A model generated the notes under the pieces. It saw only the letters and a list, made by a program, of their open reading frames with translations, was not told the DNA's origin and ran no database searches. Shown one piece after another: positions 16,682 through 56,542 of a stretch of 64,000 bases of DNA. The DNA lies in IMG/VR virus record IMGVR_UViG_3300025767_001103, positions 21,751 to 85,750 of that record. The stretch is one strand, 5' to 3'. Position 1 is the first letter of the stretch, and every line of letters starts with the position of its first letter. A program made the translations under genes and the position numbers. The DNA comes from a virus.

Positions 16682-17032
16682 ATGGATGAGCGTTTAGAAA
16701 AAGCATTAGACTTTTCTAACTATATGCTAACACTAAGCAACCAAAAACGATTGTTAGCAGAAAAATACCAAGAAGAATTAATACATTTTTACAACGGCTC
16801 GCAGTTTACACTTACTCGTGAATTGATTACGTTTGTAAGTGCAATGGTATCAGCAGATCAAGACGAAGTTGTTATTACAGATGATAATAATATTCCTTGT
16901 ATGGTAGAAGACTTAGAAAGCTTTTATAGCGAAATTATAAACAAATATACTATTGCGTCCAATGATTACTTTACTGCTTATGCTGATCTTAAAAAGAATA
17001 GAAGTGTAGAGAAATTAGTAAACTATGAGTAA
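16682..17032 (+). CDS. Hypothetical protein, first gene of the island
   Basis: 116 aa, strong SD, overlaps the next gene by 8 nt. Confidence 0.7.
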   Translation: MDERLEKALDFSNYMLTLSNQKRLLAEKYQEELIHFYNGSQFTLTRELITFVSAMVSADQDEVVITDDNNIPCMVEDLESFYSEIINKYTIASNDYFTAYADLKKNRSVEKLVNYE

Positions 17033-17876
17033 AGGCGCTTTTTTAATTGCACGTAATAACGGACACATCGATTATGTAAAACAAGCAGTGTTTCTTGCAA
17101 AGCGTATAAAGAAATATTTAAATATTCCTGTGTCAGTAGCAACTGACAGTATAGGCTATCTCGAGGACACGTTTGGTACAGATGACTTTGATAAGGTTAT
17201 TTGGCTAGATTATACTGCTGAAAGTAATAAGCGTTACTTCTTCGACGGCACGTTATCAAAGAAGTCGGCAAGTTTTAAAAATAATAATCGTGCAAGTGTG
17301 TATGATCTTACTCCCTACGACGAAACGCTATTAATGGACACTGACTATGTTATATCTAATGATCTGTTAAAAAGTTGTTTTAATTCTAATTCAGACTTTA
17401 TGATATACAAAAAGTCTGACGATATTGCAAAGGTTCGCAATGAGAGAGAATTTGATACTATAAGCAACACTAGTGTTGACTTTTATTGGGCAACTGTTGT
17501 CTATTTTAAAAAAACAGAAACTAATACTATCTTTTTTGATCTTGTTAAACATATCGAAGAAGAGTGGAATCACTACAGACGAGTTTACCAAATAACCTCT
17601 GGTTTATTTAGAAATGACTTTGCATTTAGTATGGCGATTCACATAATGAATGGATTTCAATCTGGAGATTTTGCACAACAACTTCCAGGTAGTATGCTTT
17701 ATACTACTGATAAGGATGTGTTATGGCAAATGCACGACGACGAAATGATGTTTTTAGTACAAAAGAAAGACTACTTAGGTGAATACACTGCATTAAAAAC
17801 TATAGGACAAACTATTCACGTAATGAATAAAAGTAGCCTTAATAGAATAATTGATCAGGAGTTTGCAAATGACTAA
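17025..17876 (+). CDS. GT-A fold glycosyltransferase-like protein
   Basis: TPYDETLLMDTD DxD motif, SVATD strand and late H (IHVMNK); paralogue of the next gene. Confidence 0.7.
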   Translation: MSKGAFLIARNNGHIDYVKQAVFLAKRIKKYLNIPVSVATDSIGYLEDTFGTDDFDKVIWLDYTAESNKRYFFDGTLSKKSASFKNNNRASVYDLTPYDETLLMDTDYVISNDLLKSCFNSNSDFMIYKKSDDIAKVRNEREFDTISNTSVDFYWATVVYFKKTETNTIFFDLVKHIEEEWNHYRRVYQITSGLFRNDFAFSMAIHIMNGFQSGDFAQQLPGSMLYTTDKDVLWQMHDDEMMFLVQKKDYLGEYTALKTIGQTIHVMNKSSLNRIIDQEFAND

Positions 17877-18711
17877 GGGAGTGGTAGTTCTTGCACAAAA
17901 CAATACAACTGATAATTATGTAGAGCAAGCTGCACTACTGGCAATGAGCTTGCGTTATTATAACAATGTGCCTATTAGTTTAATTACAGACGATAAGGTG
18001 CCAGACGAATATGTAAGTCTTTTTGATAAGATTATTCCTATTCCGTTCGGAGACAGTGCAGACACAAGTGAGTGGAAAGTAGAAAATCGTTGGAAGATTT
18101 ATCATGCTAGTCCGTATGATGAAACTATTGTAATGGACACTGATATGCTAGTGTTGCAAAACATTGACACTTGGTGGGACGTTCTTTCTAACTACGAAGT
18201 ATTTTATACTAGTAACGTGTTAACATACAAGGGCAAAACTGCGAATACTAGTTACTATAGAAAAACGTTTATTGATAATAATTTACCTAATTTATTCTGC
18301 GGACTTCATTATTTTAAAAAGTGCGAGTTTGCACAAGAGTTTTATGCTTGGTTAGAATTAGTAGTTAATAACTGGGAAACATTTTATGAACAACAATTGT
18401 TAGCAGCGTCTCGTCCTAAGCATGTGAGTATGGATGTATGTACTGCTATTGTAACAAAAATATTAGATTGCGAATCTGATATAACAAACAAAGTTGCCAA
18501 ATTTCCTAGCTTTACCCATATGAAGCCATATTGCCAAGGATGGCACGAAGTTCAGACTAGCTGGCAAAGTCAAATAGGTGTTTACATATCCAAAGATGGA
18601 AATACAAAGCTTGGTAATTATGTTCAAACAGGAATACTACATTATACTGAAAAGGACTTTGTAGAAAAGTCCCCAGCACTAGAGCGTTATAGGAATTTAA
18701 CAAATGTCTGA
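17869..18711 (+). CDS. GT-A fold glycosyltransferase-like protein
   Basis: Start moved to ATG 17869 (AGGAG upstream); SLITD, SPYDETIVMDTD, FTHMK and LHY motifs. Confidence 0.7.
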   Translation: MTKGVVVLAQNNTTDNYVEQAALLAMSLRYYNNVPISLITDDKVPDEYVSLFDKIIPIPFGDSADTSEWKVENRWKIYHASPYDETIVMDTDMLVLQNIDTWWDVLSNYEVFYTSNVLTYKGKTANTSYYRKTFIDNNLPNLFCGLHYFKKCEFAQEFYAWLELVVNNWETFYEQQLLAASRPKHVSMDVCTAIVTKILDCESDITNKVAKFPSFTHMKPYCQGWHEVQTSWQSQIGVYISKDGNTKLGNYVQTGILHYTEKDFVEKSPALERYRNLTNV

Positions 18712-54387: not shown

Positions 54388-55898
54388 AAAAAGTAACGAT
54401 TGTAGGGGGCGGTACCGCTGGATGGTTTGCTGCTGCATGGCTAGCAAAGTATCATCCTAATTTAATAATTACATTGATTGAATCTCCAAACATACCTAAG
54501 ATAGGAGTCGGAGAAACTGTTACACCTCATGTAGCACAGTTTTTTAAACAGCTGGGCATTAACGATAAAGTTTGGATGAAAGAAACAGGAGCAATCTACA
54601 AATTCGGCAACAAGTTTGTAGATTGGAATTCAAAAGAGAATAAGATTGAATATTCTAGTTTTAACTATCCAAGAGATATTACTAGATTAAATACAGCCGA
54701 GTCAGATGTATCTGAATTGTTTTTAGAGAAAGATAAGATCAGCACATCTGATGTTCTTATGCATCTTCTATCTAACAAGAAACTAGATAAGTTTGACAAG
54801 TATTTTAATACACAATGTCATTATATGGACAACAATGTTATGCCGTATAAAACCGGCGAATATACACTAAGTCCATTATATAGTTGGAGCCAGCATATAA
54901 ACGCAGAAAAAGCAGCAAGCTTTATCAAAGACAACCATGCAATACCAAACGGTGTAATACATGTGTTAGGCGAAGTTAAAGATGTTATAGCAGAAGGCGA
55001 TAATATTAAATCGCTAATACTAACAGATGATACTACACAGTCTGCCGACTTCTTTATTGATGCTACAGGATTTAGGCGTGTGCTTGCAACAAAATTAGGT
55101 TGGAAGTATAAAGAATATGCAAACTATCCTATAAGGAAAACTTGGGTATGCCAGCGTTCCTATAGTGATCCTACTACTGAACTTGTTAACCATACTCAAA
55201 GTATTGCTGAGCCGTTTGGCTGGCGATTTAAAGTATGCTTGTATCACAGGATGGGAACTGGTTATAGTTTTAGTCCGTCGCATGTATCTGATGAAACAGT
55301 ATTAGATTATTTTAAAGAACGCACCGATAACAGATTAATGGAACCTAGATTAATTTCATGGACCCCGGGTAGAATTGAAACTCCTGCTAAAGGTAATGTT
55401 GCATTAATCGGACTAAGTATTGGATTTGTTGAAGCATTAGAAGCCACATCATTATTAGTAATCACAGAATCAATTAAAACTATAAGTGATGTGCTTGCAG
55501 GAGAAAGGTCACTATCGAGTTATAATGATAAAATCACAGGTCTATTAGATAACATCTATGATTTTATTATTGTTCACTATACCCTTAGCAATAGAGATGA
55601 TACTGATTTTTGGAAAGATATGCAAGAGCTAGGACGCAAAGACAACCATTTAGAAATGATTAAGGATAAATTTAAAAAACTTAAATTCGGACAGTCCTTG
55701 GGCTTTCCTGACTTCTTGTGGGGACAAGTTGCTAAAGCATGGGGTGTAGATTTGTCTACATGGAACAGAACTGATATTAATGCCGATAACGTTAACCGTA
55801 CATATGATTATTTTATAAGTGAATTTAACAAACATCAGCAGATAAGTGCAGATTGCGAGAATACGTATCAGTGGTTAAAGAAGAATATATATAATTAA
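54384..55898 (+). CDS. Tryptophan-halogenase-family flavin enzyme
   Basis: IVGGGTAGW, IGVGE, YKFG (catalytic-Lys position), FIDATGF, GFVEALEAT and HY..S.R.DT.FW. Confidence 0.88.
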   Translation: MKKVTIVGGGTAGWFAAAWLAKYHPNLIITLIESPNIPKIGVGETVTPHVAQFFKQLGINDKVWMKETGAIYKFGNKFVDWNSKENKIEYSSFNYPRDITRLNTAESDVSELFLEKDKISTSDVLMHLLSNKKLDKFDKYFNTQCHYMDNNVMPYKTGEYTLSPLYSWSQHINAEKAASFIKDNHAIPNGVIHVLGEVKDVIAEGDNIKSLILTDDTTQSADFFIDATGFRRVLATKLGWKYKEYANYPIRKTWVCQRSYSDPTTELVNHTQSIAEPFGWRFKVCLYHRMGTGYSFSPSHVSDETVLDYFKERTDNRLMEPRLISWTPGRIETPAKGNVALIGLSIGFVEALEATSLLVITESIKTISDVLAGERSLSSYNDKITGLLDNIYDFIIVHYTLSNRDDTDFWKDMQELGRKDNHLEMIKDKFKKLKFGQSLGFPDFLWGQVAKAWGVDLSTWNRTDINADNVNRTYDYFISEFNKHQQISADCENTYQWLKKNIYN

Positions 55899-56542
55899 AT
55901 ATTCTTCCATGTACTATTAATAGAATTACTAACTTTTCTTCTTAAAAATTTAGAAGACACCGTATCAAAAATATCACCTGTAGCAAACCCATTAATAATA
56001 CATTCGCCGTCGTTTGCAAATTCTACATTATATTCATTTTTAGGAATAACATCAAAACTTTCTGAGTTATAACCAATAAGAACTGGCGGCGGCATCTCAG
56101 TCATACCGTACCAGTTAGCAACAGTTTGTACGCCTTTGTTATTAAAGTCGTCAATCATTTCTTGAGAAACAGGCCCGCTTCCGGTAACCATGTAACGAAC
56201 ACTAGACATGTCAAGATTGTTCCATTCGTCTACTTCTTTAAGTAATTCCCAGTGTCTAGGAATAAGTGCAATGTATGTTGGATTTATTTGTTTAAATTTT
56301 TCTATATAACTAGCAGCCTCAAACTTAGCTGATACTAATCGAGCACCTGCCTTATACGCTGGCATTGCTGTTATAGTATAGTGAGCTATTGTATTTGCCG
56401 GAAACACGTCTAATACAATGTCGTTGCTAGTAAGCCCAATTTCTTTTATAGATTTTTGTATGCATGACTCGATGTATTCCCAAGAGTGAATTACTGTCTT
56501 AGGTGCTTTTGTTGTTCCGGAAGTTAATAAAGTTAATGACAT
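55895..56542 (-). CDS. Minimal AMP-binding (ANL superfamily) adenylation-like protein
   Basis: TSGTTKAPK (A3), YGMTE (A5) and ATGD (A7) motifs within only 215 aa. Confidence 0.78.
   Translation of the reverse strand: MSLTLLTSGTTKAPKTVIHSWEYIESCIQKSIKEIGLTSNDIVLDVFPANTIAHYTITAMPAYKAGARLVSAKFEAASYIEKFKQINPTYIALIPRHWELLKEVDEWNNLDMSSVRYMVTGSGPVSQEMIDDFNNKGVQTVANWYGMTEMPPPVLIGYNSESFDVIPKNEYNVEFANDGECIINGFATGDIFDTVSSKFLRRKVSNSINSTWKNI

Follow-up and report, generated by a model that had tools for sequence, protein, structure and literature searches.

Pelagimyophages and cyanomyophages, which are marine T4-like myophages, carry in the structural region of their genomes a host recognition cluster (HRC), a non-syntenic and under-recruiting block with a mean length of 34-45 kb (PMC7029224). 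The HRC mixes tail-fibre genes with many glycosyltransferases (of which GT8 is the commonest family), deoxysugar genes, and genes of the Asp/Asn hydroxylase type, and modification of the host O-chain has been put forward, as an untested proposal, for its role (Zaragoza-Solas et al. 2020; PMC7029224). The present analysis concerns an island of 45 genes, g01-g45, at positions 16682-56542 of a 64,000-nucleotide stretch of viral DNA (hereafter, the window), which corresponds to bases 21751-85750 of the 85.75-kb linear IMG/VR virus record IMGVR_UViG_3300025767_001103. Eleven of these genes encode radical S-adenosylmethionine (SAM) enzymes, and the island lies between tail-fibre genes of a marine jumbo phage. 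To judge from its gene content, the island is most likely a phage-borne, wholly cytoplasmic, sugar-centred tailoring pathway, variable by cassette, at a tail-fibre locus.

Like the HRC, the island is hypervariable, lies in the structural region, and keeps company with fibre genes and glycosyltransferases, as the definition of an HRC has it. The HRC, however, lies between VrlC and the neck gene gp14 of a T4-like genome of 150-250 kb, whereas in the ~24% of the genome that the contig covers the island is flanked by gp6, a giant gp7-like gene, and fibre genes on the left, and by an Mtd-like fibre gene and MoxR on the right, in a phage of a distant jumbo lineage (~350 kb) with a baseplate related to those of Atu_ph07, SCTP-2, and Rak2-like phages. 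Moreover, the island is dominated by its 11 radical SAM enzymes, and it has an invariant core, a conserved sigma70-type promoter, and a promoter dichotomy. The HRC is the nearest published description, and the island is its counterpart in a distant jumbo lineage.

Glycosylation of virions in the cytoplasm by virus-encoded enzymes is carried out in the chlorovirus PBCV-1 by A64R and its partners, and it also occurs on the capsid and tail of mycobacteriophages. Virus-encoded glycosylation has so far been described for chloroviruses, mimiviruses, and mycobacteriophages, and the chlorovirus and mycobacteriophage systems are not known to include radical SAM enzymes, oxygenase arrays, or a halogenase. 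The island resembles the PBCV-1 type in its predicted soluble GT-A transferases, which would decorate virion proteins without recourse to the export machinery of the host, and A64R is among the fold matches of one of them (g05). Clustered radical SAM genes have been described in other large phages: Aeromonas phage 332-Vera has eight inside a structural/tail-fibre cluster, an arrangement called "highly unusual" (PMC12390700), and Burkholderia phage FLC6 and Ralstonia phage RSF1 carry a run of cupin, Fe-S, radical SAM, and 2-oxoglutarate (2OG) oxygenase genes (PMC8066314). These three are phiKZ-like phages, which share with the island the clustering of radical SAM, cupin, and 2OG genes; the resemblance is architectural only, and they were not found by tblastn with g06, g19, and g33.

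Conservation and Variability of the Island

The fibre gene f7, at the left border of the island, and the radical SAM gene g06 were each used as a query to obtain 80 IMG/VR loci, and the 160 loci were compared; locus length limits the counts. Genes f5-f7, g01, g02, g03, g05, g06, g14, g15, and g19 recur in 92-116 of the 160 loci, and g07-g13 are patchy. On this comparison, the core of the island is g01-g03, g05, a radical SAM gene, g15, and g17, and the remainder varies by cassette. This core recurs in more than 100 IMG/VR contigs, and the island is best regarded as a hyperplastic accessory region in a widespread clade of uncultured aquatic jumbo myophages, among which contigs of 285-360 kb are known. 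An earlier note, drawn from the letters of the window without database searches, had recommended such a synteny check, and the comparison revealed a constant core and variable cassettes that share one site.

The sole cultured phage found with the module is the Ralstonia jumbo phage RsoM2USA (MG752970), a soil phage in which ORF354-347, next after a fibre gene, comprise g01, g02, g03, an unrelated gene, g05, one N-terminal-twitch radical SAM gene, g15, and g17. This minimal version (~6 kb) is 34-43% identical to the core of the window; all of its genes are annotated as hypothetical, and they are undiscussed in the paper that describes the phage. Two related contigs (G001, 187 kb; G005, 92 kb) carry the island at the same site, from f6 to the right-flank genes r1/r2...r9, at only 18-20 kb and with nearly all of g23-g45 missing, and in another contig (L111) it spans ~12 kb. 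At least 15 contigs carry g19-g36, and some g38-g45, in near-identical order, with adjacent genes anywhere from 25% to 98% identical to those of the window. Among seawater variants, a joint at 39607>41217 removes exactly g25, an arrangement also present in contigs L180, L181, and L190, and a joint at 35008>36145 removes exactly g20. Gene-sized presence/absence polymorphism exists in natural populations. As to whether the island forms a single system, relatives keep the core without the right half, which may serve other ends.

Glycosyltransferases of the Core

According to an AlphaFold2 (AF2) model built from deep alignments of related contigs (predicted local distance difference test, pLDDT, 91), g02 resembles glycogenin, the UGGT catalytic domain, and GTA/GTB (Foldseek E 3e-6; TM 0.43-0.50 to 5y7f, 1zcu, and 7zkc). 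Its DxD residues, D105 and D107, are invariant, and Pfam Glyco_transf_8 is not matched. The predicted fold, taken with the DxD motif, confirms g02 as a GT8/GT24-like retaining GT-A glycosyltransferase. For g05, the AF2 model (pLDDT 88) aligns with 6p61 over 138 residues (VIA Z 10.3, rmsd 3.1), and Foldseek relates it to SunS/ThuS, PBCV-1 A64R, ppGalNAc-transferases, and TarP (E 2e-4); D64 and D66 (VDGDN) are invariant in 24 sequences. Pfam (E<=0.01), PHROG, and PDB sequence searches with g05 gave no match, and it does not belong to Glycos_transf_2. By predicted fold, g05 is confirmed as a GT-A glycosyltransferase outside the recognised sequence families. Its own family comprises at least 8000 clusters at 90% identity, none with a name or a Pfam domain.

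The putative GT8-like and GT-A assignments of g03 and g15 follow from their paralogy to g02 and g05, respectively. In many relatives g05 and g15, which are 10 kb apart here, form one fused two-domain protein of ~535 aa, and because of this fusion the two probably work together. The order GT2 - rSAM - [cassette] - rSAM' - GT2', where rSAM stands for radical SAM, can be read as a split core with an insertion, and the pairing of a GT2 with an N-terminal-twitch gene is seen again in phages that are only distantly related. The core proteins have no match in Pfam, PHROG, or PDB sequences; with g05, g02, g11, g12, g17, and g32 as queries, profile searches of PDB sequences returned nothing significant, the best being a methyltransferase for g17 (E 0.12). 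About six glycosyltransferase-like genes had been counted in the earlier note; g02 and g05 stand by fold and g03 and g15 by paralogy, but g08 and g11 share only a transferase-like motif ("SEKTFKP...PF").

Radical SAM Enzymes

The radical SAM genes start at 20568, 28918, 31100, 32719, 33786, 35168, 36123 (-), 37021 (-), 39673, 45541 (-), and 46593 (-), where (-) marks the minus strand. Nine of the 11 proteins score above the Pfam cut-off, and the other two, below the cut-off of PF04055, reach 308-315 bits on NCBIfam NF033640 (N_Twi_rSAM), so that all 11 radical SAM predictions were upheld. Against a curated cut-off of 170 bits, g06, g14, g19, and g22 score 308, 315, 383, and 328 bits over model positions 1-398; by these scores, all four are full-length members of this N-terminal-twitch family. 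In 40 diverse sequences of the family, C155, C159, and C162 (CxxxCxxC) are invariant, as are the N-terminal C21, C40, C96, and C99, and Pfam SPASM matches the N-terminal ends of g19 and g22. NF033640 is a named family for which a literature search yielded no reported function, and no papers were found on "N-terminal twitch" with radical SAM or on jumbo phage with radical SAM and glycosyltransferase. The remaining enzymes are more varied. g16, g18, g20, and g21 are short forms with generic radical SAM matches only, and the many NCBIfam matches of the short forms to peptide maturases are all partial and far under the curated cut-offs. The tandem pair g33 and g34 (56% identical) gives partial NCBIfam TrsS/Tes matches, and g33, like g32 and g39, had zero matches among cultured phages.

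Enzymes with a twitch domain, BtrN among them, catalyse the oxidation of sugar-like substrates. The bacterial relatives of the N-terminal-twitch enzymes examined here lie in comparable settings. In Poseidonocella sedimentorum (L205), two copies flank a nucleoside diphosphate (NDP)-hexose 2,3-dehydratase and an EryCIII-like GT1 glycosyltransferase, with B12-dependent radical SAM and polyketide synthase (PKS) genes adjoining. Four loci of Vicinamibacterales/Acidobacteria (L200, L207, L208, and L222) all contain the 2,3-dehydratase, and all except L207 the EryCIII-like GT1. In Hahella ganghwensis, the gene lies between a GT1 and a methyltransferase gene, and in Bdellovibrionota (L215/L199) and Elusimicrobia (L239) it occurs in tandem arrays of up to seven copies. 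The phage copies differ from these: their partners are GT2-like genes, and the bacterial copies examined are found in deoxysugar/GT1/PKS clusters or in tandem arrays. By analogy, we infer that the N-terminal-twitch enzymes would edit nucleotide sugars or transferred sugars.

As a separate observation, the cultured Vibrio phage K566 (255 kb; L265, 153-182 kb) has a run of five or more radical SAM genes, one of them a distant N-terminal-twitch relative.

Promoters and Probable Timing of Expression

The sigma70-type promoter that the earlier note had placed at the left edge of the island is present, with the sequence and position given in Table 1, and the region upstream of g01 retains the sigma70 pattern in 34 of 45 distinct sequences and has the late motif ATAAATA in one. 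The fibre genes show the opposite: the late motif lies upstream of f5 in 39 of 41 sequences and of f7 in 27 of 34, and the sigma70 pattern in none. Within the contig, promoters of the sigma70 class precede gp47, gp55, g01, g15, r5, and r6, and those of the late class lie 22-30 nt ahead of the start of gp6, f5, f7, r1, and r8. Judging by these motifs, the core enzymes are probably made before the late virion proteins, from a host-type promoter. Chlorovirus glycosyltransferases are likewise made before the virion proteins.

In the island itself, late-like octamers occur at three genes: TATAAGTA is found 6 nt before g23, and TATAAATA 3-4 nt before g35 and 5-6 nt before g41. The spacing of 3-6 nt suggests leaderless or otherwise unusual transcripts. 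The earlier note had argued for a fibre target from a late promoter shared with the structural genes, an argument that fails for the core, which has a sigma70-type promoter, and finds a late-like motif only at g23, g35, and g41. As for their surroundings, the three octamers lie in short divergent intergenic regions (38959-38999, 47639-47688, and 53327-53352). A window-wide enrichment of the T4 late consensus TATAAATA was considered and rejected, with 6 occurrences observed vs. 14.6 expected; only the positions are informative.

Nature of the Product and Its Acceptor

Sugars are favoured over peptides and nucleic acids as the object of this chemistry because the predicted core consists of four GT-A transferases, one radical SAM enzyme, and a methyltransferase-like protein, with a short-chain dehydrogenase/reductase (SDR) and SGNH-like proteins in the adjoining cassette, and because the bacterial N-terminal-twitch enzymes sit in deoxysugar and glycosyltransferase contexts. 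A ribosomally synthesized and post-translationally modified peptide (RiPP) is disfavoured since precursor space, protease, and exporter are all lacking: the gaps of <=68 nt hold no precursor open reading frame (ORF), g01 is evenly conserved along its whole length and therefore not precursor-like, and no protease or exporter was found among the 45 ORFs. Nor does the gene content fit a surface-polysaccharide pathway of the Wzx/Wzy, ABC, or synthase type. Hydropathy in 19-residue windows revealed no transmembrane-like run in any of the 45 proteins, with g27 and g44 each having one borderline window, and Pfam revealed no Wzx/Wzy/phosphoglycosyltransferase-type, exporter, flippase, polymerase, or initiating transferase gene among the 45 ORFs; as the proteins have no membrane segment, the island alone cannot start, flip, or export a surface polysaccharide.

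In the proposed mechanism, the core enzymes would be produced early, ahead of the late structural proteins. The transferases would move sugars from nucleotide sugars onto a phage-specified acceptor, and the radical SAM enzymes would edit the sugar or nucleotide sugar by oxidation, epimerisation, deoxygenation, or C-methylation. Swappable cassettes, encoding the SDR, SGNH-like esterases/acyltransferases, acetyl- and methyltransferases, a QueC-like amidating ATPase, oxygenases, and a halogenase, would diversify the product among strains. The acceptor would be a surface protein of the virion, with the adjacent fibres as candidates, which would amount to phage-autonomous virion glycosylation. The broader claim of the earlier note, a phage pathway that glycosylates and decorates a macromolecule, survives as a soluble, sugar-centred tailoring island at a fibre locus, but without the promoter argument for fibres as its target.

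Glycosylation of virion proteins is the best explanation, with a probability that we put at roughly 0.45. Its chief pointer is the constant site of the island right after the fibre genes, which is adjacency only and would place the acceptor among the virion proteins. In addition, a phage-intrinsic or universally conserved acceptor is favoured because the core is kept both in a phage of Ralstonia and in a low-GC marine phage. Mosaic identities and the gene-sized seawater variants also count in its favour. The more specific proposal, that the uncharacterised N-terminal-twitch enzyme edits sugars on virion fibres and that cassette exchange leads to strain-level diversity of the surface, is tentative and rather doubtful.

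Several observations weigh against virion glycosylation. The sigma70-type promoter of the core removes the argument from co-regulation and suits a role directed at DNA or at the host equally well. The radical SAM run of phage K566 adjoins genes of nucleotide metabolism (ribonucleotide reductase and nicotinamide phosphoribosyltransferase), not fibres. The fibre proteins contain no collagen-like or Ser/Thr-rich tracts, that is, no obvious glycosylation repeats. Some half of the ORFs can be assigned to a family by motifs at most. Finally, the right half is absent from core-bearing relatives (G001, G005, and RsoM2USA) and so may act on something other than the product of the core.

The last point leads to the alternative that survives best, although it is unlikely, namely that the island is not one system: a conserved glycosylation core would stand beside unrelated modules (the oxygenase arrays, halogenase, TauD, Tes-like radical SAM enzymes, and ANL fragment) that act, RiPP-like, on metabolites, peptides, or protein side chains. 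Besides the relatives that lack it, the right half contains divergent units of its own and differs in promoter geometry, halogenases and 2OG genes occur without the core in plastic regions of cyanophages, and the many partial NCBIfam matches of the short radical SAM enzymes are to peptide maturases. Against this, the right-half module is found in the same order, at the same site, and beside core-type radical SAM genes in the 15 or more contigs described above, and the intergenic gaps, the missing protease and exporter, and the low scores of the maturase matches all speak against a peptide product.

Compared with a divided island, a role in DNA hypermodification is somewhat less likely still. 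Here the transferases and tailoring enzymes would decorate the bases of phage DNA, thereby evading restriction and CRISPR, on the model of the glucosyl- and arabinosyl-hydroxymethylcytosine of T-even phages and of systems that pair TET with a glycosyltransferase. An early-type core promoter, a content as hypervariable as in an arms race, and the many HxD...H oxygenase-like proteins with a QueC-like ATPase would suit it. Within the window, however, no hydroxymethylase, TET/JBP, DpdA/TGT, DNA methyltransferase, or GT-B DNA glucosyltransferase was detected, as the earlier note had said, which is weak evidence given that the contig represents only ~24% of the genome, and two larger relatives have a canonical-looking ThyA-family gene (330-350 bits over the full Pfam profile). 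Furthermore, restriction-site-like palindromes are strongly avoided, which is unexpected for bulk-protected DNA and counts weakly against the proposal. In the whole contig (G000), 6-mer palindromes have a mean z of -0.96 vs. 0.01 for the rest (p 5e-6); GTGCAC occurs 0 times vs. ~36 expected on both strands, CTGCAG 12 vs. 47, and CTTAAG 2 vs. 21, and the 4-mer palindromes CGCG, CATG, and GGCC are depleted as well. The depletion looks like restriction-site avoidance.

Equally improbable is remodelling of the host from the cytoplasmic side, in which a precursor of the lipopolysaccharide (LPS)/O-chain or of the envelope, or alternatively a conserved RNA or protein of the host, would be altered and superinfection or defence thereby blocked. 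This is the published view of the analogous HRC, where GT8 is commonest and LPS-type genes are present (PMC7029224). The sugar-nucleotide and O-acyl tailoring genes of the island are typical of O-antigen loci, and the early-type core promoter would again fit. Yet the initiating phosphoglycosyltransferase, flippase, polymerase, Gtr-type, and membrane proteins are all missing among the 45 ORFs, and a core common to a marine low-GC phage and a Ralstonia phage fits poorly with strain-specific O-antigens.

Whichever acceptor applies, a giant phage devotes roughly one-eighth of its genome to soluble tailoring enzymes, the main families of which (the N-terminal-twitch radical SAM enzymes, the g05/g15 and g02/g03 transferases, and g32) have no characterised member and abound in metagenomes from aquatic sites. 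Should the product decorate virions, virus-encoded glycosylation would be extended to aquatic phages, with radical chemistry added, and part of the puzzle of the marine myophage HRC would be explained. If the enzymes edit fibres, thousands of environmental phage lineages would have a new means of changing their host range or of evading defences and decoys; if the product acts on DNA or on the host, it would be a new counter-defence or exclusion chemistry. The cultured RsoM2USA, with its minimal core, is a tractable experimental entry point.

Oxygenase-Like Proteins and Other Tailoring Enzymes

Approximately 12 proteins had been assigned a 2OG-Fe(II) fold. Pfam supports five, with g07, g39, and g40 above the cut-off and g24 and g30 just below it (g39, g24, and g30 are cupins of the Asp/Asn-hydroxylase type), and comparison of hidden Markov models (HMM-HMM) ties two more, g26 and g29, to g30; for g27, g31, g32, g42, and g43, the assignment is by the HxD...H motif alone. 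The same comparison, in reduced form, ties g28 to g35 and linked only these proteins. Separately, g32 (44742-45551, minus strand; 269 aa) is 73-93% identical in contigs where the adjacent genes are 30-76% identical. Among 15 sequences, 122 of its 269 positions are invariant, and 957 clusters are known, none of them named, of which the best 120 are at least 75% identical. It has no match in Pfam, PHROG, or PDB, and it is missing from relatives with short islands.

Among the other enzymes, clear assignments were obtained, as predicted, for the epimerase (g10, an SDR epimerase/dehydratase), a methyltransferase (g37, Methyltransf_24), the hexapeptide acetyltransferase (g41), and a protein of the halogenase family (g44). 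The last matches PF04820 (Trp_halogenase) at 4e-83 and is 28-31% identical to cyanophage halogenases. Of the motifs expected in flavin-dependent halogenases, GGGTAG (for GxGxxG), a Lys in YKFG, and GFVEALEAT are present, but the WxWxIP position reads GWRFKV; a pattern scan of IMG/VR confirmed no relatives. The QueC-like nature of g23 is borne out by a PP-loop (SGGADSA) and a C-terminal Cys cluster, and g17 has the class-I methyltransferase motifs GGWNG and DIDP. For the three proposed SGNH proteins (g09, g12, and g13), SGNH-type blocks were found, but at the level of motifs only, with one weak Pfam match. Similarly, the adenylation enzyme is an AMP-binding match but only a fragment of 215 aa (g45). 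It covers the middle third of the ANL profile, and the neighbouring DNA has no space for the missing N- and C-terminal parts. This short form may be maintained, because homologues 57-66% identical occur in three related contigs. In a search of 20 unannotated ORFs against PHROGs, zero families were obtained. The positions of all features are collected in Table 1.

Table 1. Features of the island and its flanks (window coordinates unless stated otherwise).
Feature	Position	Strand	Remarks
5185-aa ORF	1-8508 (contig 14701-30258; L010:702-16259)		Single ORF between gp6 and fibre genes
Left flank, fibre-module genes f3-f7	9138-16615	+	Collar domain, Peptidase_G2 domain, f6/f7 paralogues; late ATAAATA motifs
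Sigma70-type promoter of core operon, TTGACA-N17-TATACT	16627-16655	+	
g01, 116-aa core protein, unrecognised fold	16682-17032	+	In 95 loci and RsoM2USA
g02, g03, paralogous putative GT8-like retaining GT-A glycosyltransferases (core)	17025-18711	+	Fold of g02; paralogy
g04, variable-slot protein	18704-19648	+	Only partial, weak homologues at same slot in relatives
g05, predicted GT2-like GT-A glycosyltransferase (core)	19648-20571	+	Predicted fold, DxD
g06, N-terminal-twitch radical SAM (core)	20568-21956	+	58-82% identical in at least 80 IMG/VR loci
g07-g13, variable sugar cassette	22007-28921	+	P4H-type 2OG oxygenase; g08/g11 SEK-motif; g09/g12/g13 SGNH-like; g10 NDP-sugar SDR
g14, N-terminal-twitch radical SAM	28918-30435	+	g06 paralogue, 33% identity
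Internal sigma70-type promoter	30432-30460	+	12/12 match with TG, 5 nt before g15; kept in only 8/38 relatives
g15, putative GT2-like GT-A glycosyltransferase (core)	30466-31140	+	g05 paralogue
g16 short radical SAM, g17 class-I methyltransferase-like (core), g18 radical SAM	31100-33786	+	
g19 N-terminal-twitch radical SAM, g20 short radical SAM	33786-36139	+	
g21 short radical SAM, g22 N-terminal-twitch radical SAM, g23 QueC-like PP-loop ATPase	36123-38959	-	
g24 Asp/Asn-hydroxylase-like cupin, g25 B12-binding radical SAM (PhpK-like)	38999-41220	+	
g26-g32, HxD...H oxygenase-like g26, g27, g29, g30, g31, g32; kinase-like g28	41217-45551		
g33, g34, tandem radical SAMs with HMPTM/Tes-type N-terminal zinc ribbon	45541-47639	-	Pfam PF23545 7e-16, 2e-15
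g35 (g28 paralogue), g36, g37 (Methyltransf_24), g38 (methyltransferase-like C-terminus)	47688-51147	+	
g39 Asp_Arg_Hydrox, g40 TauD-type 2OG dioxygenase, g41 hexapeptide acetyltransferase (Vat/CatB-like)	51144-53327	-	
g42, g43 HxD...H motif proteins, g44 flavin-dependent halogenase family	53352-55898	+	
g45, 215-aa fragment of AMP-binding (ANL) enzyme	55895-56542	-	Profile positions ~170-330 only
Hairpin + T-run	56566-56589	-	Ends r1 fibre gene; marks right border
Right flank	56611-61896	-	Mtd_N-type fibre r1; r2-r4; DUF2201 metallopeptidase/VWA r5; MoxR AAA+ r6

Source Contig, Borders, and Flanks

The contig is 24% complete by CheckV, which gives a genome of ~350 kb, and its source is a marine jumbo myophage distant from T4. 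The genes that precede the window code for a nuclease like gp47/SbcD, a late sigma factor of the gp55 type, a baseplate hub, gp25, and a gp6 of 1171 aa; this gp6 is 31-36% identical to its counterparts in Agrobacterium phage Atu_ph07, Salicola phage SCTP-2, and jumbo myophages of the Rak2/121Q type. The 5185-aa ORF that follows matches no Pfam family above threshold and may be presumed to encode a giant protein of the baseplate or fibre, similar to gp7. G+C stays at 0.32-0.41 along the whole contig, with no compositional break at the island borders. The risk of a chimeric contig, raised in the earlier note, is excluded by independent seawater runs. Over 16682-26681, a fraction of 0.89-0.96 of the sampled words was found in 16 seawater/marine runs, besides three likely source samples, and three independent runs leave no bin of 27000-46999 uncovered, their pieces showing differences of 0-1 letters. 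Because of this near word-for-word recovery, the contig is genuine marine phage DNA rather than a chimera. The metatranscriptome run X20 was considered as evidence of expression and dropped, as it yielded only four short contigs, one with adapter sequence.

The island was rightly described as contiguous and nearly all-enzyme: 45 ORFs of the non-overlapping type tile it with short overlaps or gaps of at most 68 nt. It is also bracketed by fibre genes: one fibre with a collar domain and another with a Peptidase_G2 domain lie in the flanks, as does an Mtd_N protein. When the left flank was compared with cultured phages by megablast, zero matches were obtained, and the same right flank is present in relatives with shorter islands. 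The terminator reported at the right edge is real as a hairpin with a T-run, but it lies downstream of the minus-strand r1 and hence ends that fibre gene rather than the island. The Mtd_N-type gene r1 itself (56611-57864, minus strand) has an internal tandem repeat of ~36 aa (STLDALTDTDLTGA...KWE). A diversity-generating retroelement (DGR) at this gene was considered and rejected: the sole repeat is the internal one, and the 86-kb contig has neither template repeat nor reverse transcriptase. Farther to the right, r5 and r6 (59430-61896, minus strand; the latter of the MoxR type) form a conserved pair that is 57-72% identical in G001 and G005.

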